Virus record (IMG/VR): IMGVR_UViG_3300010998_000001 | Coordinates: 27,477-91,476 of that record | Strand: one strand, 5' to 3' | Source of the DNA: a virus | Lineage: Duplodnaviria > Heunggongvirae > Uroviricota > Caudoviricetes | Length of the DNA stretch: 64,000 bases | In this document: piece after piece, positions 25,756-53,754 of the stretch | Position numbering within the stretch: the first letter of the stretch is position 1 | Layout: the number at the start of each line of letters is the position of its first letter | Program-made: the position numbers and the translations under genes | The notes under the pieces: generated by a model | Databases searched by the model: none | The model's input: only the letters and a program-made list of their open reading frames with translations | What the model was told of the DNA's origin: nothing

Positions 25756-28700
25756 TTAGATTGAGAAGCCGAGGGCCACGGCATTCGCGTTACTCGCGCC
25801 GTAGTAGTTGGTCGGATAGCCAATATTGTTGACAAACATGAAGTTCGTGCTATAACTGGTATTGGGAGAACGCACCCACCAGTTATACGCCTGAACCCAG
25901 CCGCCAGAGGCGTAACTTGAATCGGCGGTGTATGCAGGAGTAATCGCATACTGAGTTAATTCATTAGTAGGAACGAACATATAGCCAATACTACTATTGC
26001 CAGTATGAATCCAAATATCGCCTGGATTCATAGCCTTCTGATTGAGCGCCGCTGGGTCTGTATCAGTCACATACATTGTGCATCCATCAGGATTAGTAGT
26101 GCCAGAGGATGTGCCTGTTGCTTGTGAAGTTCTAATTCTTCCGCGCCATTTAATTCTAGCATAGTTCGTAGTCAGCCAAGAAATAGGTGAATCGCTAGTA
26201 CCAATCTCATCGTTGTAAATATTTCCAGAGCCGCCAACCTCACGATAACTTGGCAGATAGACTTTATCTTCGCTTGTCCAAATAGTAGAAGATTGTGAAC
26301 CAGCGGACGCTTTAATCTCTACGGCGCGAATAATAGATTGCCATTCTTGCGGCAGAGAATCAAACAACCGCCCATTGCAGAACACGCGCATATCACAGTT
26401 CATCCAGCCGCCAGAGTTAGTATTGGTAGAGTTCATGTAATGTCCACGAGCGCGGAAGCAGTTATTAGCAATGAAACTAGCTTTACTCGTATCAGCAGAA
26501 TTGTAATAGTAGTATTTACCAGCGCCCCAATATTCCATGCGGACTAACTCTCTCGGCCATGTGGCAATCTTTTGAGCAACATCATCGCCCAAATCAGCTT
26601 CCCAAATCTTCATCCAATGGATATGCCCATTACCATAGTAGCGATAACCGCTATTATACTGGACACCACCAAATGTCATACCAATATCAGAATTGGAAGC
26701 GGCAGATCGAAGAAGAACTGTCTTTGTAATTGTATTAGCATAAGAGTCATTTGTATTAGCCCCGAAAGCATACACATATAGATAGTTGCTGCCCTCTGGA
26801 TGCCGAATGACAACTATATCGCGCCGAGCGCCATTGCCGACAGTAACAGACTTATCACCCCATTGAAGAGTTGGAGCTGTATTATAATACAGTCTAAATC
26901 CTTCAGTAGTTTCTCCATCAAATGTTGAAACAAGAGTGGAATTTGCGGCGGCATTAGCAAAATCAAAGTCAATTGCAATAGTAAATGCGGGGCCTCCATT
27001 TTCGCACAACTTGATATTGTCCAATGTCACAGCCGTTGAACCATCGAAGTAGTATCCACCGCTCCAATACTGGTCTACTGTAACGCCGTTCAATATATAA
27101 TCACTCGTTCTTGTAACTGTACGACCTGTACCATCAAGGATTGAAACAGTCTGATTGGGGCCGATTTCAATATCAGACACGTTAGAGAAGTTATAATCAT
27201 GTCCGAGAATAATATCAGTATAATCCTTATCTTCCCAATATGTGCTCTGTTGTCCAGACTGAGCAATGCCATAAATCTGAGCAACAGTCATATCTTTCAT
27301 GTCTGTTCCAGCAACGGGCCAAGCAGCATTCATTACTTGCCACTGAGCATACACGGCAATATCGCCAGTCACAAAACCAGTTGACTTATCCCAGCCAGTA
27401 AAGACACGATAAATATAACTGGATTCACCCGCTGTCCATGTTGGCGTATCTCCGCTATACACAGCTTCCGAACCATAAGGAATATTGGTCTGAGTCTCTA
27501 GCACAGTACCAGAAGTTCTATACCAGATAACGGTGTATGTTCTCGTTGTAGTTGAATACTGTGCGGTAATTGTCCGTGGCCCAGTTATGGCACTACTGAT
27601 GTTATCCCAACCAGTATAAGTATAAACATACTGCGCCGTTGGGGCCATTGTTGGCAATAAAATATCACTTTCATCGACAAAGTTCCAATCGGTTCCGTCA
27701 GACAAATAGATGTAGCCATTGGTGGTGTTTTGATAGTAAACGCCATCATAATTACCGGCATCATAATTGTTGTCCTCCGCCGTTCCAGCGCCAGACAGAG
27801 TAATCGTATAGCCCATGGTGATAGGATCATAAGGAACACCGCCAGCGTCAACCCACTGTGTATATGGATTGCCGTTTTTGTCGTAAATAGGATTGCCGTC
27901 GCCATTCATAAATGTGGCAAGATACTGTGTAACCATAGCATCATAGGTAATCGTTAGATAAGGCCATGCTGTGTTATACTCGGACAGTAAGCTATTACGC
28001 ATCGTGGGAGTGTACGCCGCGCCAGTGAGAACAGACTGTGCAGTAGCATAACCATCGTCGCCAATACCAGTCATTAAAAGGAGATCGTCAAGAGTGTCGG
28101 TATCAGACAAAGACCAATCAATACCAAGTAGTCTCACGCGAGAAAGGTTAGGCGCGGATTCTACAAGGTTAAGAATAATATCTTTAATGGCCTGAGTAGT
28201 AGAGGTAGTGCCAATCGTCAATGCAGCCGTATCTGCAAATTCGCAGTTTTCAGCCACAAGCTGAGTAAGGCTACTAATGTTTGCAATGTTAAGATCGGTC
28301 AGATAGATCAAATCGCGCATTGCAAAAGTTGTCGGGGTAGGAAGGTGCGCCGTCTCAAGCAAGCCATTTGTCGCAAAAGAGATACCAGAGAAAGCGGTGT
28401 TCTCAAGATATACTTCGCGCAGAGACAGGCATCCGGTTAGATCAAGTGCACCCGTAGCATTCGGGCAATTTCTAACATCAAGATATTCAAGCATTGTGCT
28501 GTTGCCAATCGTCAGCCCTTCAAGGTTCGGGTTAGTGTACCCCGTCACATTAGAACCAATTTCAAGCCGCTGAAGGTTAGTCGCCATAGCGAAGTTATTT
28601 TGCTTGAAATATAGGTGGGCAAGACCACTAAGCTCCGTAATCATAGGCGCGGAGCAGAAGTAAAGCTCGGTTTCTGACATCTGTCCAACAGTAGTAAAGT

Positions 28701-43983: not shown

Positions 43984-46900
43984 CTAAAATCTTATTCTAT
44001 ATTTGTCCATTGAGCTTCGCCCAACTAATTTATTAATGCTCATTGCCTCGATAAGTTTTTCAAACTTCTTATCACTCTGCATCTGCCGTACAAGATCGTT
44101 GTAATCTTGAACATGGTCTATCTCAATATTCAAATTAATATCGCCAATATTAGTTCCAGTATCCGCGCCAGAACCAAGACGTGAAAGAACGCTTGAAGCT
44201 ATATCGGCTGCTTTATCAGAGTAAGAGTAGCTATAATTGCCGCCATTCAACAGTGATAATGGCTGTTTAGCAATCGCCCTTAGAGAATCACGAAGATTAA
44301 CAAAGTTCTTAGTATCTTCCGCGTCAAGAACGGTTTCCGGCCTTCCGGGAGTACCGTCCAACCACGCAAGTCCAGTAAAGTCAACTTCGCCGCCGCGTTT
44401 ATAATTCTTAAACTTCTTGCGCATTTCTTTGTAGCTGTAGCCTTTGGGACTATAGCTAGAAGTATAAGAATATCCTTTATTAACAATGGTCTGAATCCCG
44501 TTTCCAGAGCCAAACACTTCTGTCAGTCTATTGGCGCGGGTTGGGTTTGTACTCCACCCATAGTTACCATTCCAAATAGCCGCCGCAACGTGTTTCTTAA
44601 TGCTGTCTGTTAATGTTGGCGCAGTAAAAGTAGAAGTTGTCTCTTTCTGCTCTTCCTTCTTTGTAGACTCACCATTCTGAGTAGCTGGAACAACAGACTT
44701 ATCAACTTCTGTAGTAGTAGCAGTTGCCGCAATTTTCGCCGTTGCTTCTTCTTCGCTCTTCTTGATTAAGCCATCTGTATATGCTTTGATACCATTGATC
44801 GCAGCATTAGTTGTAGTCATAGTAGAAGTGAAATTATTGCTATACGTCGTAATCGCACCAGTTGTAGCGAGGATTCTTTTTGCGACAGAGTTATCATCTT
44901 CGCCATTCATGGCCTTTTTCAACAATTCAGCATCGGCGCTAGATAATTGCCCCTCTGTAATGAGTTGGTTGATTAGCTTTGTCGCAAGGCTATTGTCGCC
45001 GCCATTAATAGCATTTTTCAATTTCTCAGCATCCGCCGCAGAAAGTTTACCTTCAGATTGAAGTGTATTGATGAGCATATTGGCGAGACTTCCAGAATCG
45101 CCGCCATTAATAGCCGCCTTAATATCTTCCGCTGTAGTTGCGGCCTGTTTCCATAACGTTGACAGTTCGCCGGAAATTGTATATCCGACAGATTTCGCCG
45201 CGTCATTTATGGTTTTGTTAATTGTGTCAGCGTTAAAATTAACATCATCTGTTAATTCGCTTATCAGCAAATCAACATCATCAAGCCGTGTGTTCAGAGT
45301 AGTCTCATACTCCAAGTACAAATCATCTAGGAGCTTCTTTTGATCCTTAATATACTGATCGTATTGAGTTTCCTCTAATTCCTCTTGCGCGTCGATTAAC
45401 TCTTGATTGAGTTTCTGTAGCCGCGAAATATTTTCCTCCGAAGAGTCACCTCCGTAGGCCGTAATCTGCTTCTGAATTGATGCAATATTCGCGGTCTGTT
45501 TCTCGATATTCTTACGATAGTCATTGAGTGACTTCGCCGCATCTAACGAATCCTCATAGGAATCAATCAACTCTTTTAGCGCATCAAGCTGGGCTTTAAT
45601 ACCTTCCTCGACAAGAGCAACCATAGCGTCCTTTTCATCGTTGGCCGCTTTTATAGAGTCTTGTTGCAGTTTGAGTAATTTTTCTCTCTGCGTAATAAGG
45701 TCGGTATTATATGGGTCTTTCGCTATGTCCTCGTTGATCTTCTTGATTTCCTTGGCATACTGGTCGGCTTGGTTCATGTAGATGTTATAATTCATACCAT
45801 GCAGACCAAGATTGGTTAGGCCAGTATCGGTAAAGTTACCCTGTTTATCTACATTATCACCAGTTAATAAACTCATTAGGAAATCACTTTCCTGAGTCAT
45901 TTGTCCAATTCGATCTTGCGTGAAACTAAAGTAAGACCATTCAAGCTCGCGCATAGTCTTAGCATATTTGGCCAGCGAAATATCAGCTTCATCCAAGGCT
46001 TCCTTAACCTTGTTGATATTTATTTGCATCTGGTTAAATGCTTCGCTGCCTTCTTCGATTTCGCCGCTATTAACAGCCTCAGACATGGCGCGAGTTAGCT
46101 CTTTCAGCTCTGCTTCGAGAACTTCTTTATTCTGTTTCTCTGCTTTCTGAAGGGCAGTATAATAGGAAGTAGCCGCCAGTCGGCCACGTTCCTCTAGCAA
46201 ATCAAGACCATTATTGTAGGTTGTTGCCAAATGGCCGATTAAATCAAGCTGTTGCTCAAAATCCGTTTGGGCGCGAGTAAAGTTTTCCTCATAAAGAGAG
46301 GCAAGGGTTTCATGGAGCGTATCAACAGCTTTTGAACATTCTAATGATTTCTCATACCACTCTTGATACTTTTTGATAAGCTCCGCCGTTGCGTCATCGT
46401 AATCGTTGATATCAATAATACCTTCGCGTACTTTTGCCGCCAAATCAGAAGATAATCCAACAGAGTTTGCTTGTTGTAGATACCTCTCTGCGGCGCGAGT
46501 TTGTAGATCAATCTCCTGCGCAACAAGCTCGATCTCGTCATATGTCGCCGCCATCCGGCCTTTGAGTGACAAATATGTACTATCGGCAGTTTCTTTCAAA
46601 TTAGAAATTGCGTCCTCAATACGATTAATCGCAATTTCGATCCAGTCGATAGTTTCTAAATCATCCGAAGAAGATGAACTTGAAGAGCTAGAAGAACTGG
46701 ACGATGAACTACTAGAAGAACTTTTTGAAGAGCTGCTACTTGATGAAGTAGACGACGTTCCACTATACCCCGTAGACTTTCCACCGCTTAAACTATATGT
46801 CGTATAACCAGAGCGGCCAGCGGCAAATGCTGGGATCGCATCACTGAAATCATTGTTCGCTAGTATCTTTCTGGTTTCCGCCGCTGTATAAACAACGTCG

Positions 46901-49410
46901 CCTTTATTCAGGTGCCCAAGAACGGGGCCATTAACGCCCGCCAAATATGCACTACCATTAGATACGACCAACTCTGGCTTGGGAGTTCCAGATGGTGAGT
47001 ATTCGTCGCCAAGTAGGGAAGTACCAGACTTGGCATATTTGGTGCCAGCCGCGTTAGATTGCACATTTCTTGTATTAACAGTTATAGTGACAGTCTTACT
47101 CTGAATACTGGCAATATAACTCCGCAAAGCAAGCACATTCGCCCTGGCTGTTCCAGTATTATCTAGAACAGTTGCTTGAGTATTTTGTGGCAAACCATTA
47201 AGTAGATCATAAATAGCCGTAATTTGCGCATTAGCATCATCTGTATTACCATTGAGTATAGCTTGCCAATCTGTTCCAACCAATTCTTCTAGTTGTGTTT
47301 TGGTAGCATCAATAGCAATCGTGGCGGGGCCGTTATCGGTATCAATAGTGATTTCTATTGTCGTATCACCGGAAGCGCCGCCAACGTCAATACCTTGACT
47401 TAATGTTTCTTTCGCGTTATTATAGGCTTCAATAACAGCTTGTGTAGATTGATCAAGAGCTTCGGCAGAAGCGTCGAATGTTCCCGTTTCAATCGCGGCA
47501 ACATCTAAATCTGTTCCATCAAGAGCCTGTTCCAGCGCCATATTTAGCGCAGCAAGTTTTTCCTCGGTTGTGCCAGCCTCGTTTGCGATATTCTGCATAA
47601 ACGAGATAACATCTTCCGGGGTTTGAAGGTCGATCTCATGGAACTGCGCAGCTCTCATGATAAGGTCATATAATGCGCCTTCGTCAATTTCGAGCCATTC
47701 AGCTAGCTCGGCCAGATTTGCGTTATCAATGTCAAAGGTAAGTTCTCCGTCCGCGTACTCAAACTCATTGAATAGAGCGGCAACCTCCGGGTGGAGATCA
47801 ACCATCTCTTGCAGATCGGTTAAGAAAGCATCCGTGCCAGAGTAATCGTCGCCAGAGAACCATGCGTTCTTAGCTTCAACCCAGCCCCAAAGAGCATCGG
47901 CATTGTGGGACTCGATCATCTCCATTGGAGCGCCCATGGCCTCGGCAATATCCCAAAGGTTAGACTCGCTACCAATTAAGCCACCCTCGAACATCTCAAG
48001 CATCTTGCTCATACCAGAAACACGAGAATCCCAACCAGCGTCGTTATTCTCATTCATAGCATCATTCAACGCCGAGATTGCATCGTTAGAGGCGTTGATC
48101 GCGTCGGATAGTGAGATATACTTATCGGATAGACTTTCTATGTATTCACTTGTTTCCGATGCCGCCTCAGAAGCATTGTGTAAGTATTCGCTGATTTGAT
48201 CTAAATTCCATCCAGAAATATCCTGGTTTTGCATTAGATCAAACAAATCTCTTAATTCATTAACGCTTAAATGACTAAGAAAATCATTCCAATCTCCCCA
48301 ACCAACATCAATATTGTCTGGTTTGAGTTTACGAAGTTGACTTAGAACTTCATCAACATCAATCGCGCCAATAGCAGAATTGATTGTATTAGCCAGATCA
48401 TCAACAGATATTCCGGCTTCATCAGCCGCCGCCGCAAGTTCTGGAAACAGAGTTCTTAACTCGCCGCCACTCATTCCATTCATCGTGTCGGCAAGCTCTT
48501 TAGCATCATCTACCATTTTAGAAATAGAAGAATCAGATATGAACTCGCTTATCTTTCCTTGCGCTCTTGCAAATTCATCATCACCATATAGGATATAATC
48601 ATATAAAGCATCAATCCGTTCAACATCTTCCTGATAATCTTCATATCCGTATATAGATGTATAGAAATCGTCTATTTGTGGCCGATAAGTTGTTACTTCA
48701 TTCTGCCAATAGAGCATAGCCTGATAAGCGTTTTGAGCTGCTGCGCTATTCTTATCAACTATGCCTTCATATTCTGCCGCTGCTTCATTTGCTTTCTTTT
48801 GCGCTCGATAAACATAATCAATAATATCAATGTGTTCATTCGCAGCGCCAGCACCACCAGCTAAAAAATCATACCAATGTTGCTCTCCGCCGTAATTTCC
48901 TGCGGTATTCCAAAGAAAGCCTTGATTATTTACCGCATCATGAGCATCACTAGCAGCTTGCATACCTTGTTTACGAGCATCTTCTTCGCGCAATGCGATT
49001 TCACGCTCAAGCAAAGCATTGGCCGTTTCAAGCTTTGTTAATTCCTGTTGTTCAACTAGGGTTAGAGAACCTTTCGCTTTCAGTTCATCAATGCGATCCT
49101 GAGTAGTTTGAAGTTCTCCATTAAGATTATCAATTTCAGATTTCGTCTTTTCATAGGCTTGACGAGATTCCTCTGCCTTTTGAGTTGCTTCTGAAAACGA
49201 AACAACAATAGAATCTATGACAATCGCCGTAGCCGCTAGTGCCGCAATAGCAATAGCCGCTGGGCCAAGTACAGCAACAAAAGTTTCAGCCGCTGCCGCC
49301 GACATTCCGAACCCATTAACTAGAGCTGCCGCCATTGACGAACCAGCAGTTTGTACCCCTTTCATTACTGTCAATCCAGTACGGAGTGTAGTAACGAAAG
49401 TTTTAATATT
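43984..49410 (-). CDS. tape measure protein, exon 2
   Basis: Long helical/coiled-coil ORF ending in a typical TMP C-terminus (GGEVDFTGLAWLDGT...E.VL). No SD before ATG 49425. In-frame fusion to exon 1 after removal of 49411-50712. Confidence 0.88.
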   Translation of the reverse strand, partial: NIKTFVTTLRTGLTVMKGVQTAGSSMAAALVNGFGMSAAAAETFVAVLGPAAIAIAALAATAIVIDSIVVSFSEATQKAEESRQAYEKTKSEIDNLNGELQTTQDRIDELKAKGSLTLVEQQELTKLETANALLEREIALREEDARKQGMQAASDAHDAVNNQGFLWNTAGNYGGEQHWYDFLAGGAGAANEHIDIIDYVYRAQKKANEAAAEYEGIVDKNSAAAQNAYQAMLYWQNEVTTYRPQIDDFYTSIYGYEDYQEDVERIDALYDYILYGDDEFARAQGKISEFISDSSISKMVDDAKELADTMNGMSGGELRTLFPELAAAADEAGISVDDLANTINSAIGAIDVDEVLSQLRKLKPDNIDVGWGDWNDFLSHLSVNELRDLFDLMQNQDISGWNLDQISEYLHNASEAASETSEYIESLSDKYISLSDAINASNDAISALNDAMNENNDAGWDSRVSGMSKMLEMFEGGLIGSESNLWDIAEAMGAPMEMIESHNADALWGWVEAKNAWFSGDDYSGTDAFLTDLQEMVDLHPEVAALFNEFEYADGELTFDIDNANLAELAEWLEIDEGALYDLIMRAAQFHEIDLQTPEDVISFMQNIANEAGTTEEKLAALNMALEQALDGTDLDVAAIETGTFDASAEALDQSTQAVIEAYNNAKETLSQGIDVGGASGDTTIEITIDTDNGPATIAIDATKTQLEELVGTDWQAILNGNTDDANAQITAIYDLLNGLPQNTQATVLDNTGTARANVLALRSYIASIQSKTVTITVNTRNVQSNAAGTKYAKSGTSLLGDEYSPSGTPKPELVVSNGSAYLAGVNGPVLGHLNKGDVVYTAAETRKILANNDFSDAIPAFAAGRSGYTTYSLSGGKSTGYSGTSSTSSSSSSSKSSSSSSSSSSSSSSSSSSSDDLETIDWIEIAINRIEDAISNLKETADSTYLSLKGRMAATYDEIELVAQEIDLQTRAAERYLQQANSVGLSSDLAAKVREGIIDINDYDDATAELIKKYQEWYEKSLECSKAVDTLHETLASLYEENFTRAQTDFEQQLDLIGHLATTYNNGLDLLEERGRLAATSYYTALQKAEKQNKEVLEAELKELTRAMSEAVNSGEIEEGSEAFNQMQININKVKEALDEADISLAKYAKTMRELEWSYFSFTQDRIGQMTQESDFLMSLLTGDNVDKQGNFTDTGLTNLGLHGMNYNIYMNQADQYAKEIKKINEDIAKDPYNTDLITQREKLLKLQQDSIKAANDEKDAMVALVEEGIKAQLDALKELIDSYEDSLDAAKSLNDYRKNIEKQTANIASIQKQITAYGGDSSEENISRLQKLNQELIDAQEELEETQYDQYIKDQKKLLDDLYLEYETTLNTRLDDVDLLISELTDDVNFNADTINKTINDAAKSVGYTISGELSTLWKQAATTAEDIKAAINGGDSGSLANMLINTLQSEGKLSAADAEKLKNAINGGDNSLATKLINQLITEGQLSSADAELLKKAMNGEDDNSVAKRILATTGAITTYSNNFTSTMTTTNAAINGIKAYTDGLIKKSEEEATAKIAATATTTEVDKSVVPATQNGESTKKEEQKETTSTFTAPTLTDSIKKHVAAAIWNGNYGWSTNPTRANRLTEVFGSGNGIQTIVNKGYSYTSSYSPKGYSYKEMRKKFKNYKRGGEVDFTGLAWLDGTPGRPETVLDAEDTKNFVNLRDSLRAIAKQPLSLLNGGNYSYSYSDKAADIASSVLSRLGSGADTGTNIGDINLNIEIDHVQDYNDLVRQMQSDKKFEKLIEAMSINKLVGRSSMDKYRIRF

Positions 49411-49460
49411 CAAATTGTTTGTCATATGTATTTCTGGTTACATATTAAGGAGGTACATTT

Positions 49461-50051
49461 ATGCAATATTCAATCGCAGATGAAATTAGAAAACTAAAAG
49501 ACCTTGCAGATGAAGGCATAATCACTCAAGAGGAATTTGAAACACAGAAAAAGAAAATTCTTAACAATGATGTTTCAGACACTCAATCTAATCCTGCAAA
49601 CATTCCGGCAATAGAAGAACTCTATAAGGTTGTTTTAAATGAAATTCCAACAAAATCTAAAGAGGCAACCATTAAAATGATCTGCATTACAAATTCAATT
49701 GGTTACAACGAAGCATGGGCCATGGCTACCAATCCGCCAACAGTAATACGAACAGGCATGAATATCACACAGGCCGAAAGTTTGGCGGCAAAGTATGAAC
49801 AGCTAAAATGTAATGTATCTATTGAGCTGGACAATAATGCAATGCAAGTAGAGGCGCGGCGTAAAGCAACCATATCTAAAGATATGGAAAATGAAGATAA
49901 ATTGCGCTGTCCTAAATGCGGCTCTTTTGCAATTACAACTGGCGCACGAGGCGCTAATTTCACGTTTGTTTTGTTCGGCGCTTCAAAGACCGTCAACCGA
50001 TGCGGCAAATGCGGATACACATGGAGTCCGGCAACAGGGAGGAAGGTCTAA
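49461..50051 (+). CDS. intron-borne antisense cargo gene: SHOCT + ribosomal L7/L12-like + zinc ribbon
   Basis: SD AAGGAGG (49447-49453). IADEIRKLKDLADEGIITQEEFETQKKKIL (SHOCT), a central segment resembling the L7/L12 C-terminal fold, and CPKC...CGKC with a hydrophobic loop. Confidence 0.85.
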   Translation: MQYSIADEIRKLKDLADEGIITQEEFETQKKKILNNDVSDTQSNPANIPAIEELYKVVLNEIPTKSKEATIKMICITNSIGYNEAWAMATNPPTVIRTGMNITQAESLAAKYEQLKCNVSIELDNNAMQVEARRKATISKDMENEDKLRCPKCGSFAITTGARGANFTFVLFGASKTVNRCGKCGYTWSPATGRKV

Positions 50052-50167
50052 ATCTTGCGCCGCAATAAAAATTTTAACCACTACATATAGTGTCAATGAA
50101 TTATACCACACGCAATATATAGTATTATTTTGCCGATAAAATTTGTCTTTTAACTAATATAAATACT

Positions 50168-50203
50168 AATACATCTAGTATTATTAACTAGATGTATTTT
50201 TTT
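50168..50203 (+). terminator. intrinsic terminator of the cargo gene
   Basis: Perfect 12-bp stem AATACATCTAGT/ACTAGATGTATT with a T tract on the + strand. Confidence 0.8.
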
Positions 50204-50712
50204 CTCCATCCAGAAAAACAACCAAGGAGAAGTGGCTGATTTATTTTACAAACTCTATGCTACTTCTAACATTGGAATGCCGTGCTGTTGCCAGCGAGCA
50301 TAGAACTATCGCCGCCAAATAAATAAACTCGACAATAGTAATTTCGACTGTATATCACGCTTAATCAAAATAATGTTTGACAAATATAAAATAGTCATGT
50401 ATAGCAAATAATAATGATAGCGAACCCCCTTACAGTCAGTGTGCCTTCCCGTTTTTCGCGCCAAGTAGATACTTGCCCAAGGCGAAACAGTCCCGATCAT
50501 AAGAAGGGGAGAGGGGCTTGGTGGCGGACTACTCATTGTGATAACCTTTAGCATTATGATTTAGCATGGGTCATCCGCTGTTTCTTTCTGCCTTTCGGCG
50601 GCTGTCACGCTCATCCGTTAGGATCACGTTGTAGCACAGCGGCATTAGAGCTTCCCCGCAGTTTGAGGGTTTATGCAAAACAGGCTTGCGCCTGTAAAGG
50701 GCAATTTTGTTT

Positions 50713-52653
50713 ACCAAAGTTTTTGATTAGGGCGACTAATCCGCCAGCTCCGGCCAGAGCCGCAAGAGTTCCACCGGGGCCGAGTTTTTCAGTGATCTTG
50801 TCAACCACTTCGAGGATAGAGGTTAGAGCTTCTACCGCATTTCCTATATCTTCGCGTGGGAACAAATTCTGAATTATTCCAGTTCCAGTCTCTTTGAGAG
50901 CATTTAGTTTATACTCAAGAGACTCCATAATAATAGACATCTCTGCGTCGGCATTGCCAGCAGAGTCCTCCATTTTAGACATGGCTTCTTCTGCCGCGCT
51001 AAAGTTTTGTAGGATCGCCGCACCGATCTGAGCACGAGTTTTACCGAATAGTTTCTCTAAGAGTCCTGCTTGCTGTTTATCGGTGAGATCGTCCCAAATG
51101 TATGAGATGTCGCGCAAAATCTCATAGGTGGATTTGTATGTATCCGCATCCTCCATAATCGAGATTTTACCATTTGTAAGTTCCGAAATGTCAGATTTAA
51201 TATTAACTAGGCTTTCGTCCAGTTGCTCGGTTTCCTCATCCATTCCGCGAATACGCATTGAAATTGTGCGCAAACCGTTACCAACCTTGCTGGCATTCTG
51301 CGTAATCTCAGTACCAGCCGTAATAAGGGCAATCGTTTCTTCTAGCGTATTGTTCGCTGCCGCCATAGCAGATGATGAGTTCATAAGACCTTCGGAAAGG
51401 TCAGCGTTTGAAAGCGCAAAGTTGTTACCAACAATATTAATCTTCGACATGATGCCATCTAGCACTTCGTTAGTCTGCACATCAAATGCTTTCATAACAC
51501 TAACAAGAGTACCAGTTGAATCATCAATGCTCATGCCAGGAGAGATAGATGCAAACTGCGCCGCAAGCTTTGACATTCTAGTAGCATCTTCATAACTACC
51601 ATATCCAAGGCGGCTCCAATCCGCGCTTGTCTGAATAATCTCTTGTGTTGTGCGGCCTAGTTGTTTCGCTATCTCATTAGCATCATAATAATAACTAGAC
51701 AATTCGCTGCCAGTCATTGAAGAAGTTTTCTGAAGGTCAACTAACGCCGTGTCTAATTCAACAACTGTATTGATAGCTTCTTTAACTTCCGACGCAACTT
51801 TGCGGATCGCCATGGCTACGCTTGTGATGCCGATAGTCTGTAAAGCAATATTCTTTAATGAAGTTGCAAAAGTATTGGTAGTTAATCCTGCGGCCTGGGC
51901 CTCGGATTTAATTTTTGCAAACTCATCTCTAACCTGAGTTAATTTACCAGCATCAGTATTATTGTTTAGCTGTTGTTGCAACTGTCTAAGTTGATCGCCA
52001 TACTGTTGTGCAGCTTTAGTATTCTTCTGCATCCAACTTTCTATCTGATTAGAAAGCGTCGCAGATTTAGTAAGAGTCTGTTGCTCTCTGGCGACTTGTC
52101 TTAATGCGTCAGCTCTTTCTTTTTCTGCGCGAGCTGCCGTCTGTGCAGCTTCGCGTTCTAGCCTTGCCTGTGTGCTAATCTGTGTATTAGTGACAGATAG
52201 TATTTGATTAAACCGTTGCGCTGCGGCAACACGGTCTGAATCTGCAATGTTAGCATTATTCACAGTGTCAAATGCTGCCTGTAAGCTACGCATATTAGCC
52301 TGTAAGGAAGAAGATACATTTCCTAACTTATTAAACTCATTCATCGTACTAGTGAGTTTAGCTTGCAAACCACTAATGTTTAAGCTTGAAAATGAGTTTG
52401 TTAGGATTCTATTAATATCATTCCCTGCGGCCTGGGCCTTGGCTGTCAAACCTTTAAAATCAAACGCCTTACTAGTATCAACTTTAAGGCCCATATTATT
52501 AAGAGCGCTTTGAATTGCGCGAGTAAATGCAGCAGTATCGCCAATTTTAACGTTACTTAATTTAATCTCAGTATTGCCTAATTTTTTAATCTGGCTTTCT
52601 ACTTGTGATAAGTTATTAAGTTTGGCCGTTATTTTGGCGGTAAAATCACTCAT
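50713..52653 (-). CDS. tape measure protein, exon 1 (TP901-type TMP domain)
   Basis: ELDTAL.DL.K, S.DWSRLGY, GN..A+S, TQNASKVGNGLRTISMRIRG motifs. Start ATG 52653 with GGAAAGGAGG. The ORF as called runs 13 codons into the intron before a stop at 50671-50673. Confidence 0.9.
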
Positions 52654-52704
52654 AATAATTCCTCCTTTCCTCAAAAATTAGAGTGACATTATTATGAAGA
52701 ATTT

Positions 52705-53754
52705 TTATAAGTTATCTAAACTGTTCTGTTGAACTTGTTTAATTCCTTCAGCGCCAAAATATTTTTCAAATTGCTCTTCGCTTGGAGTATCATCGTAAAG
52801 CTTTACCATGTCGGCAGAATCCCATCCAACTATATCTTGAATTACACTATCTGGAATACCATACTCTTTCAGCCTTGTTGTAAAACGATGTCTCATAGAG
52901 TGCCAGTAAAATGGTTTCTTCAATTTGGCAGAAAACGTTTGCGCCAATGAATCCATCAGAGATACATCAATTTGTTCATCTAACCATTCGCCATTTTTAT
53001 ATTTCGGGAATAGCCAATCGCTCTCAATACCAAGCTTTTCTCTTTCCTTGAGCCACATATCTAAATATGGCTTAAATGGTTTCGCAAGAGTGTAAAGATC
53101 AAGTAACTTACCTTTTGATCCGCGTCCTTTGGTTGTAACTTTCTCTGGTGTTTTGTATAATGCGCCGCTACAAATTAGATTTTCATCATTAAAATAAGAT
53201 ACCTTAAATCTAGGTATCTCTGATTTGCGGCGACCGCCATTCATTGCCAAAGATAGCGCACACGCTTTCATATAATCTTTTCTTTCAATAAGTTGATCTA
53301 GCAACCCTTGAAGGTCATCATCTTGAAAGACGGACTTCTCACGAACTGTTTCATTCGCAGGAGATTCTATCTTTCTAACTATTGGTCTATAACCTTCATA
53401 CTCATCATCTAAGATAGCCTCAATAAAGTTTGATAGGGAACTCATAGTTGCCTTTACCGTTCTTACGCGCTTTGGCGACCAATGCCACTCGTTAATACAA
53501 TGATTCTGGAACTTAGCAATCTCTCTCTTTGTTAGATCAACAAAGAATTTATTTTTATTAAATTCCAGATTCCAACACCAAAACACATGAAGATTAGCTT
53601 TATATTGTTTGATTGTACTTGCAGCCCTATCTATGGATTGCAAATATTCTAAAAAATCATTCTCTAATTCTATGTTTTCAGGATTAACCTGTTTCATCTT
53701 TTCTTCGGATGTGATGTTGTTATAAACAGTTGAACGTCCTTCAACTCTTCCCAT
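52705..53754 (-). CDS. second tyrosine recombinase (XerC/D-like) in the tail module
   Basis: GGRRKSE, HSMRH, VGW....VKLY. No arm-binding N-terminal domain. Confidence 0.88.
   Translation of the reverse strand: MGRVEGRSTVYNNITSEEKMKQVNPENIELENDFLEYLQSIDRAASTIKQYKANLHVFWCWNLEFNKNKFFVDLTKREIAKFQNHCINEWHWSPKRVRTVKATMSSLSNFIEAILDDEYEGYRPIVRKIESPANETVREKSVFQDDDLQGLLDQLIERKDYMKACALSLAMNGGRRKSEIPRFKVSYFNDENLICSGALYKTPEKVTTKGRGSKGKLLDLYTLAKPFKPYLDMWLKEREKLGIESDWLFPKYKNGEWLDEQIDVSLMDSLAQTFSAKLKKPFYWHSMRHRFTTRLKEYGIPDSVIQDIVGWDSADMVKLYDDTPSEEQFEKYFGAEGIKQVQQNSLDNL

Follow-up and report, generated by a model that had tools for sequence, protein, structure and literature searches.

The stretch of DNA considered here, which we call the window, is 64,000 nucleotides (nt) long and covers positions 27,477 to 91,476 of IMG/VR record IMGVR_UViG_3300010998_000001, a virus of the Caudoviricetes; it is part of a complete viral genome of 155 kb with direct terminal repeats. 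On the minus strand of the window lies the gene for a tape-measure protein (TMP), and it lies there in two pieces, with an insert between them that holds the helices of a group I ribozyme and, beyond these, a small gene that points the other way and whose protein ends in a zinc ribbon (Table 1). In this paper, we have tried to answer two questions about this one place: what is the insert, and what is a backwards gene doing inside it? We argue that a group I intron interrupts the TMP gene of an SPbeta-like phage directly after the GGU of its KNFG codons and that the opposite-strand zinc-ribbon gene is the resident cargo of that intron, a reading to which we would give a probability of about 80%.

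Table 1. Positions of the split gene, the ribozyme elements, the cargo cassette and the adjoining open reading frames (ORFs) in the window
Feature	Positions	Strand	Particulars
TMP exon 1	50713-52653	-	647 amino acids (aa); ATG start at 52653 behind AAAGGAGG; ends ...LIKNFG
Group I intron	49411-50712	-	1302 nt; first third (5′ side) ribozyme, remaining two thirds cargo cassette
P1	50700-50715	-	Exon GGU and intron AA with guide UUGCC (50704-50700); loop ACAAAA
P2	50680-50695	-	Hairpin ACAGGC-GCAA-GCCUGU, -8.5 kcal/mol
P3 5′ strand, P4, P5, P5abc-type extension, P4′	50521-50673	-	Matched by covariance model R1
Extended P6 region	50438-50520	-	Base CC/GG and CCC/GGG, two inner hairpins; sequence reading and minimum free energy (MFE) fold
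P7 5′ strand to P7′	50346-50437	-	GACUGUA 50437-50431; P3′ GGGGGUU 50429-50423; P8 50422-50358
J8/7 UGAUA and P7′ UACAGUC	50357-50346	-	Read from the sequence
P9-like region	50243-50345	-	Local 10-base-pair (bp) hairpin, then CUAUGCU/AGCAUAG stem enclosing GCUG-GCAA-CAGC hairpin
Intrinsic-terminator-like hairpin	50168-50206	+	12 bp and TTTTTTCT; hairpin with T-run at 50168-50198
Cargo gene	49461-50051	+	196 aa; Shine-Dalgarno (SD) sequence AAGGAGG at 49447-49453, 7 nt ahead of the ATG
TMP exon 2	43984-49410	-	1808 aa and stop; coding 49410-43987; starts AAU AUU AAA = NIKTFVTTL
Tyrosine recombinase gene	52705-53754	-	349 aa; PF00589 and SAM-like N-terminal domain; directly upstream of the TMP gene
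82-aa sense ORF	50306-50554	-	Within the ribozyme core (P6-P8); no family matches; most likely no gene

Two Halves of One Reading Frame

Both pieces belong, collinearly, to a single TMP family: exon 1 covers positions 335-948 of phrog_4211 and exon 2 covers positions 976-2599, and a Pfam match to PF10145 is found in exon 1 as well. The last codons of exon 1 read ...AAC UUU GGU, and the U of that GGU (50713) is the 5′ splice-site nucleotide. When the exons are joined at 50713|49410, the frame stays open through 647 + 1808 = 2455 aa with zero internal stops, just as a preliminary description of this DNA, made from its letters alone, had proposed. The joined protein (read, for BLASTP, from a TTG at 52674 and thus 2462 aa long) aligns with the continuous 2722-aa TMP of a relative on a viral contig, L003 (labels of this kind denote the loci of relatives), in one segment that spans the junction, with ..KNFG|NIK.. 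in the window facing ..PLMG|NLA.. in the relative.

Might exon 2 be translated on its own? The sole ATG near its start, at 49425, has no SD sequence before it, as far as can be read from the sequence, and the relatives likewise show neither an SD sequence nor a consistent start codon ahead of exon 2. A working TMP is to be expected, because the record is that of a complete virus with terminal repeats. We take this virus to be an SPbeta-like siphovirus of gut Clostridia, because its relatives have the SPbeta gene set (the YonB, YomX, YomW, YomV, YomU and YomN families).

A Group I Ribozyme in the Insert

The insert runs from 50712 down to 49411, beginning with AAACAAAAUUGCC and ending with CAAUUUG, the terminal G of which is 49411; its limits and its sequence are those that had been given before, and so are the helices P1, P2, P3 (AACCCUC/GGGGGUU), P4 (GCGGG/UCCGC) and P7 (GACUGUA/UACAGUC), the last three read from the sequence. 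In P1, the U at the splice site (U50713) forms the U.G pair with G50702. In the P5abc-type extension, one hairpin is capped by a GAAA tetraloop, and there are also an A-rich stretch, AGAAAGAAA, and a receptor-like CAUGC...GCUAAAG motif. The order of P7, P3′, P8, J8/7 and P7′ is canonical (GACUGUA-A-GGGGGUU-P8-UGAUA-UACAGUC), a judgment made by eye, and the string at the junction of J8/7 with P7′, GAUAUACAGUC, agrees with GAUAUAGUC of the homologues (GAUA-UA(C)AGUC junction).

Where do the homologues come from? A blastn search of phages with the insert gave a sole match, of 115 nt (window 50673-50559), in an unannotated gap of Aeromonas phage AerS_266, and it was through this match that relatives of the intron subfamily could be traced. 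The gap (L002:2565-3301, OR496884.1) contains two tandem matches to the Rfam group I model RF00028, of 43.3 and 60.7 bits, and the one that matches the window is that of 60.7, against a cut-off of 50; both introns follow a piece of coding sequence (CDS) for a phiKZ-type RNA polymerase. (That polymerase gene is probably split; the record annotates its pieces separately or not at all.) The relatives of the Aeromonas intron, in turn, are all in split genes: jumbo-phage RNA polymerase genes (Shewanella, Klebsiella, Listeria), an Enterococcus nrd gene, a Lactococcus DNA polymerase III gene, a gene of Staphylococcus and the TMP gene of Thomasclavelia phage TR-TP1. Going by these sequences, the ribozyme subfamily is widespread in phage genes, among them those for jumbo-phage RNA polymerase, nrd, DNA polymerase and TMP. 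In TR-TP1 (L053:5687-13516, PQ571309.1) two inserts, each with an HNH endonuclease gene, split the TMP, and the first of them has the same P5abc-type ribozyme domain (171 bits with the model described next); the annotation lists the pieces of the TR-TP1 TMP as CDSs of their own.

From nine other phage group I introns, the window excluded, an alignment of P3-P4-P5abc-P4′ (A4) was made into a covariance model, R1. Run against the window, R1 gives a full-length match at 50673-50521 on the minus strand with 110.2 bits (E 1.6e-19), and this match is single, both in the window and in the entire 155-kb genome; a pattern scan of viral contigs for the P5abc motif gave zero matches. The pairing is also conserved where the letters are not, with compensatory changes relative to the homologues in P3, P4, P5, P5a and P7, those in P3 and P7 being judged by eye. 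For P3, the window has ACCCUC/GGGGGU and homologues have CCUAUC/GGUAGG, CUUCUC/GGGAAG and UUUCUC/GGGAAA; for P4, G-C is replaced by U-A; for P5, CUC/GAG by CCC/GGG; for P5a, CCGCUG/CAGCGG by UUCUUUG/CAAAGAA, UUCAUUUA/UAAAUGAA and CUAACUAA/UUAGUUAG; and for P7, GACUGUA/UACAGUC by GACUA/UAGUC, GAUCA/UGAUC and GAAUU/AAUUC.

The Same Site in Relatives

If the insert is an intron, the site it occupies should be recognizable elsewhere, filled or empty, and it is. With the end of exon 1 as query, a protein search gave 1440 matches; among the best 120 of these, on which the endings were counted, 118 homologous N-terminal ORFs end at, or a few residues past, the motif KN[FLIV][GD], the last codon of which is GGU or GAU and thus ends in U. 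Prophages of Clostridia were compared at 39 loci, with Flintibacter muris, Dysosmobacter, Ruminococcus sp. YE282 and Lachnospiraceae among the genomes represented; the TMP is continuous in about 16, as in L003, and interrupted at KN[FLIV][GD] in about 20, with gaps of 525-2426 nt. The inserts that were fetched form at least seven groups unrelated to one another by blastn, and none is close to the insert of the window. R1 nonetheless matches right after exon 1 in ten of the loci (L009, L011, L034, L047, L008, L035, L040, L045, L046/L060 and L022), and the insert of L034 passes the Rfam model as well (55.8 bits). In a family of inserts that R1 misses, 31 of the 73 pairs predicted show compensatory changes; the P1 of this family (GUCGGU/GCCGAC) has one compensatory change, and its U.G pair falls exactly at KNVG|. 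At the same TMP site there are also introns of 525-690 nt that have no ORF at all.

Further R1 matches, of 67-78 bits, lie upstream of KNxG (L047:1385-1528, L047:2103-2249, L039:2601-2745 and L043:2609-2751). Some relatives may thus have two or three such introns in or before the N-terminal part of the TMP, and this would account for the very short ORFs that represent exon 1 in them.

A Backwards Gene with a Zinc Ribbon

That the insert holds a passenger other than an endonuclease, and that this passenger is an opposite-strand gene with its own SD sequence and terminator, had both been stated before, and both are borne out: AAGGAGG and the 12-bp hairpin with its T-run are in place, and the ORF matches SHOCT, L7/L12-C and zinc-ribbon models and no nuclease model. 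The Pfam SHOCT domain (PF09851) accounts for residues 7-34 (38.0 bits against a cut-off of 27, E 1.2e-9). Residues 55-123, which are modeled with confidence, have the fold of the L7/L12 C-terminal domain, a domain that has EF-G, EF-Tu, IF2 and RF3 as partners: in an AlphaFold model (predicted local distance difference test score 76.7), Foldseek superimposes them on 1ctf with a template-modeling score of 0.92, a root-mean-square deviation of 1.0 Å and 24% identity; a profile search of the PDB finds 1dd3 (4e-5); and PF00542 scores 24.4, just below its Pfam cut-off of 25.9, with the beta-alpha-alpha-beta-alpha-beta fold present. The zinc ribbon, recognized from a family alignment, takes up residues 150-184 at the C terminus (CPKCGS...GASKTVNRCGKCG).

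Scans with Pfam, PHROG, PADLOC and NCBIfam found no nuclease, recombinase or maturase signature in the protein and no known defense protein. An Atlas search with the protein gave leads that were all below 0.9 and that led to the same zinc-ribbon/L12 clusters, and its nearest relative is 94% identical and has the same gene layout. The idea that it is a ribosomal protein was rejected, the N-terminal dimerization and L10-binding domain being missing. An intron of the homing-endonuclease type was rejected also, there being no LAGLIDADG, GIY-YIG, HNH, His-Cys, PD-(D/E)XK or EDxHD ORF within the intron, and so was the identification of the element as an IStron, family scans of 49411-50712 having found neither an IS200/IS605- or IS607-type transposase nor a TnpB domain.

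What makes this gene more than a curiosity of one phage is its recurrence. In 12 sampled loci (the window, L008, L009, L011, L012, L022, L039, L047, L060, L063, L065 and L066), a zinc ribbon of the form CPxCxS, about 25 residues, CxxC ends an opposite-strand ORF that abuts TMP exon 2. The N-terminal parts vary from one to another, with extra zinc ribbons, with or without an L12-like domain or, as in the window, with SHOCT, and some members of the family consist of only 110 aa of zinc ribbons. Among further members sampled at random, two of three adjoin TMP exon 2. Two other members, with zinc ribbons and with or without the L7/L12-like domain, stand away from any TMP (L050:5001-5459 and L067:6001-6591); one sits in a bacterial chromosomal neighborhood found in hundreds of contigs and the other in a mobile-element row with restriction-modification and resolvase genes, under the source name 'ribosomal protein L7/L12'.

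The Distant 3′ Splice Site

Toward the 3′ end of the intron the structural evidence is weaker. We place the splice site after 49411 because of the terminal G, the exact frame, the want of an SD sequence before the ATG at 49425 and the homologous junction in relatives; the window shares its terminal G with L009, L011 and L060, and the junction that reads G|AAU (NIKTF) in the window reads G|UCG (SLKSIG or SLNDIG) in those three relatives. The preliminary description had, in addition, closed a P9 loop around the cargo with a long-range pairing of AAAUU with AAUUU and of UUGUC with GACAA. This we cannot count as evidence: by duplex energy the pairing ranks 133 among 886 windows of the same intron (shuffle p about 0.125), which is the level of chance, and the local 10-bp hairpin of the P9-like region (intron positions 374-383 with 400-409) competes for the same UUGUC. 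The cargo is better described as lying in the 3′ tail that follows the P9-like hairpins than as enclosed in a P9 loop. The P10 pairing suggested for the AAU of the 3′ exon amounts to just 3 bp.

There are, then, several points that weigh against the interpretation we favor. About 830 nt separate the core from the 3′ splice site, and what would bridge this distance is the 3-bp P10 and the chance-level, P9.0-like pairing. The 3′ half of the intron differs from that of the homologues in its long P6 and P8 and in having no P7.1/7.2, and R1 spans the 5′ domain. The z-scores of the MFE are unremarkable (-1.2 for the whole core and -1.7 for the P9-like region). Transcription of the opposite strand could interfere with folding of the intron, and a promoter for the cargo was not established by the sequence scan: the one consensus match (TTGTCA-16-CATATT) would start the transcript inside the SD sequence, and there are as many matches in shuffles.

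The last of these points is the silence of Rfam. It had been suggested that group I models would recognize 49411-50712, and here the outcome is divided: R1, made from nine other introns, does so, and RF00028 does not, neither at its gathering score nor at E ≤ 10 on 2.2 kb nor on a 441-nt slice. The same model is silent on the TMP inserts of L008, L009 and L032. Its gathering score, however, is missed by six of seven introns of the same subfamily that sit in classic split-gene contexts, and among the nine source introns of R1 just two pass it (Aeromonas, 60.7 bits, and Shewanella, 72.5 bits). We consider the silence uninformative for the window, because RF00028 is so poorly sensitive to this subfamily.

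Proposed Mechanism and Its Alternatives

How might such an element work? The 5′ portion of about 470 nt would be the ribozyme (P1-P2, P3-P8, the P5abc-type extension and the P9-like hairpins), and the 3′ portion of about 830 nt a self-contained cassette on the opposite strand, made up of the SD sequence, the 196-aa gene and the intrinsic terminator. During late transcription the pre-mRNA would fold, guanosine would attack after U50713, and exon 1 would be ligated to exon 2 after G49411 to yield an mRNA for a single TMP of 2455 aa and roughly 270 kDa, with the predicted junction ...AACUUUGGU/AAUAUUAAAACU.... The cargo gene would be transcribed independently of the late operon, and its terminator would halt that transcript before it reached the ribozyme. 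The element probably spreads through recombination between related phages or with the help of a nuclease in trans, since it has no endonuclease of its own.

The preliminary description saw in the intron a docking site for accessory (moron) genes. One half of this idea has held up well, for the contents of the site do differ from phage to phage; the other half has not, because a ribbon that abuts exon 2 in 12 loci, across introns that blastn does not relate, is hardly an arbitrary moron. The zinc-ribbon gene looks, from these comparisons, like the resident of the element, and other genes look like additions beside it, an arrangement that recalls the insertion sequence in the 3′ part of an IStron. 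One might go further and imagine that the zinc-ribbon gene and the intron are co-evolving, the gene acting as a partner of the intron (in its spread, its retention or the control of its splicing) and the intron offering SPbeta-like phages a landing pad within an essential gene, at no cost, for genes of the toxin-antitoxin and defense type, but we regard this as speculative and, taken as a whole, doubtful.

A narrower version of the same thought is also the first alternative to be weighed, namely that the zinc-ribbon protein is a functional partner of the intron, a new kind of factor for mobility, maintenance or splicing control whose place of binding, on DNA or RNA, would be the target site or the intron. 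Such a role would explain why the gene keeps so constant a position against the 3′ splice site, and the same ribbon stays there while the ribozymes beside it are unrelated by blastn and the N-terminal domains differ; two of the three randomly sampled members do likewise, and an element without a homing endonuclease is nevertheless found at the same precise site in a great many phages. Yet the protein has no signature of a nuclease, recombinase or maturase, some members are merely 110 aa of zinc ribbons, the family occurs away from TMP genes and introns and, at this very site, introns of 525-690 nt have no ORF at all. On balance, we think a partner role unlikely.

Could the intron be a decayed one that no longer splices, with the TMP made as two polypeptides or the copy defective? 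The Rfam result and the distant 3′ splice site, with its chance-level guiding helices, are what such a relic might show; exon 1 does read 13 codons into the insert before a stop, there is an ATG 5 codons ahead of the junction, and the inserts of 5-6 kb in some relatives seem hard to splice. But all elements of the core are intact and score highly against independent introns, the terminal G is kept, the frame is exact at the junction, which has its homologue in relatives and in TMPs without the intron, the genome is complete, and the ATG at 49425 has no SD sequence, with no consistent exon 2 start in relatives, all of which makes decay quite improbable.

Least credible by far is removal at the DNA level, as an insertion-sequence-like element or through excision by the tyrosine recombinase encoded directly upstream, which could be supported by that gene, by the TnpB N-terminal domain after the L032 insert and by an imperfect 11-nt direct repeat near both borders (49394-49404 and 50713-50723), but the copies of the repeat are displaced by 6 nt and not in phase, so that recombination across them would shift the frame, the recombinase gene also stands upstream of the intron-less TMP of L003 in a conserved SPbeta-like gene order, the insert has no transposase, terminal inverted repeats or in-phase target duplication, and the ribozyme evidence accounts for the insert without any excision of DNA. 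The repeat itself, which reads AAAACUUUGGU where exon 1 ends and, 6 nt inside exon 2, AAAACUUUCGU, is probably due to chance.

Known Systems and Significance

Phage group I introns are usually regarded as vehicles for homing endonucleases. The nrdD (sunY) intron of phage T4 and other endonuclease-bearing phage introns have a large ORF outside the catalytic core, and in this the intron with its zinc-ribbon resident resembles them; the ORFs of that type, and those in TR-TP1, are homing endonucleases on the sense strand, whereas the ORF in the window is backwards and has no nuclease domain. A nearer parallel, in one respect, is rps3 within the rnl group I intron of fungal mitochondria, a protein gene other than an endonuclease gene that is housed in a group I intron. 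There, however, the intron belongs to an organelle rRNA and the gene is a housekeeping gene of the host on the sense strand; here the gene is backwards, independently terminated and in a phage. Phage morons, too, come to mind: they are units of promoter, gene and terminator that stand between late genes and are typically one-off. The cassette in the window is likewise a self-contained accessory unit with its own terminator in the late structural region, but it stands inside a coding sequence, thanks to the intron, and its protein module turns up repeatedly at this one place.

The presence of introns in TMP genes is not in itself new, since group I introns of types IA1 and IA2 (TMP-IVS1, IVS2 and IVS3) were described as early as 2008 from prophage TMP genes of the Bacillus cereus group (Tourasse and Kolsto 2008, PMC2504315). 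The parts of that paper covered here report alleles with and without the intron, different introns at one site and several introns without a complete endonuclease gene (PMC2504315). The intron in the window lies in another phage lineage (SPbeta-like, of gut Clostridia) and at another site, and its 3′ part is a conserved backwards zinc-ribbon gene; those same parts of PMC2504315 make no mention of opposite-strand or accessory cargo.

The IStrons CdISt1 of Clostridioides difficile and BcISt1 of Bacillus cereus (PMC4227781) join a group I ribozyme at the 5′ end to foreign coding DNA at the 3′ end. The likeness is considerable, for here also a 5′ ribozyme is followed by a foreign protein-coding 3′ part, with the 3′ splice site far from the core; splicing is what renders an IStron insertion harmless, and at the same TMP site one relative (L032) has a TnpB-type helix-turn-helix (HTH) protein after the intron. 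But the cargo in the window has no TnpA, TnpB or guide RNA and is encoded on the opposite strand with a terminator of its own, and the element has one fixed place in one gene and is not scattered over a genome. In a limited literature search (parts of full texts, of a 2014 review of bacterial group I introns and of an IStron survey), no description of opposite-strand, non-endonuclease, conserved cargo in phage introns was found. Within the reach of that search, introns in TMP genes and IStrons are known, and the conserved backwards cargo is what is new.

Why should this matter? Here and in many prophages of gut Clostridia, an essential structural gene has this intron slot, and the slot is filled by a backwards, independently terminated gene of one conserved family. 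If the intron splices, a ribozyme can make space for storing genes inside a coding sequence, the "split" tape-measure genes of genome annotations find an explanation, and a common subfamily of phage introns has been missed by standard RNA libraries. The phage of the window is known from a metagenome only, but cultured strains with a homologous intron and zinc-ribbon gene, such as Flintibacter muris DSM 110149 (L011) and Ruminococcus sp. YE282 (L022), would allow the benefit of the cargo to an endonuclease-free intron to be studied directly.

Other Contents of the Slot and a Neighboring Gene

The slot can hold far more than one small gene. In L060, exon 1 ends in KNLD and is followed by an R1 ribozyme domain and then by about 6 kb with seven genes, including those for a MazF/PemK-like toxin and a Big_2 protein, and then the zinc-ribbon gene; downstream is a frame of 2148 aa with homology to the TMP C terminus. 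L065 has 5.4 kb of genes at the same place, and L069 has 3.8 kb.

Other relatives, on short contigs that do not extend to exon 2, have sense-strand genes right after an insert at this site: one for ToxN (L038:5825-6364, E 7.5e-41), one for a SocA/Panacea-domain protein (L049:5361-5864) and, IStron-like, one for the TnpB-type protein mentioned above (HTH_OrfB_IS605, L032:5476-5946, E 8e-23). In L017:6716-7687, L029:6408-7382, L064:3360-7109 and L004, the TMP stops at KNxG and is followed by defense-like genes of the GmrSD_N or NsnA type (DUF262). For L004, whose record is 60 kb long, tblastn with exon 2 detected no counterpart of it, in a search too insensitive for many relatives. The downstream genes in L004/L017, L029, L032, L038, L049 and L064 may be large cargo within an intron, or they may mark a truncated prophage.

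Finally, the tyrosine recombinase gene just upstream of the TMP gene has counterparts at the same position in L003, L008, L063, L065 and L066, the intron-less relative included, and we take it to be part of the conserved SPbeta-like structural gene order rather than of an insert, because it is found beside an intron-less TMP as well.

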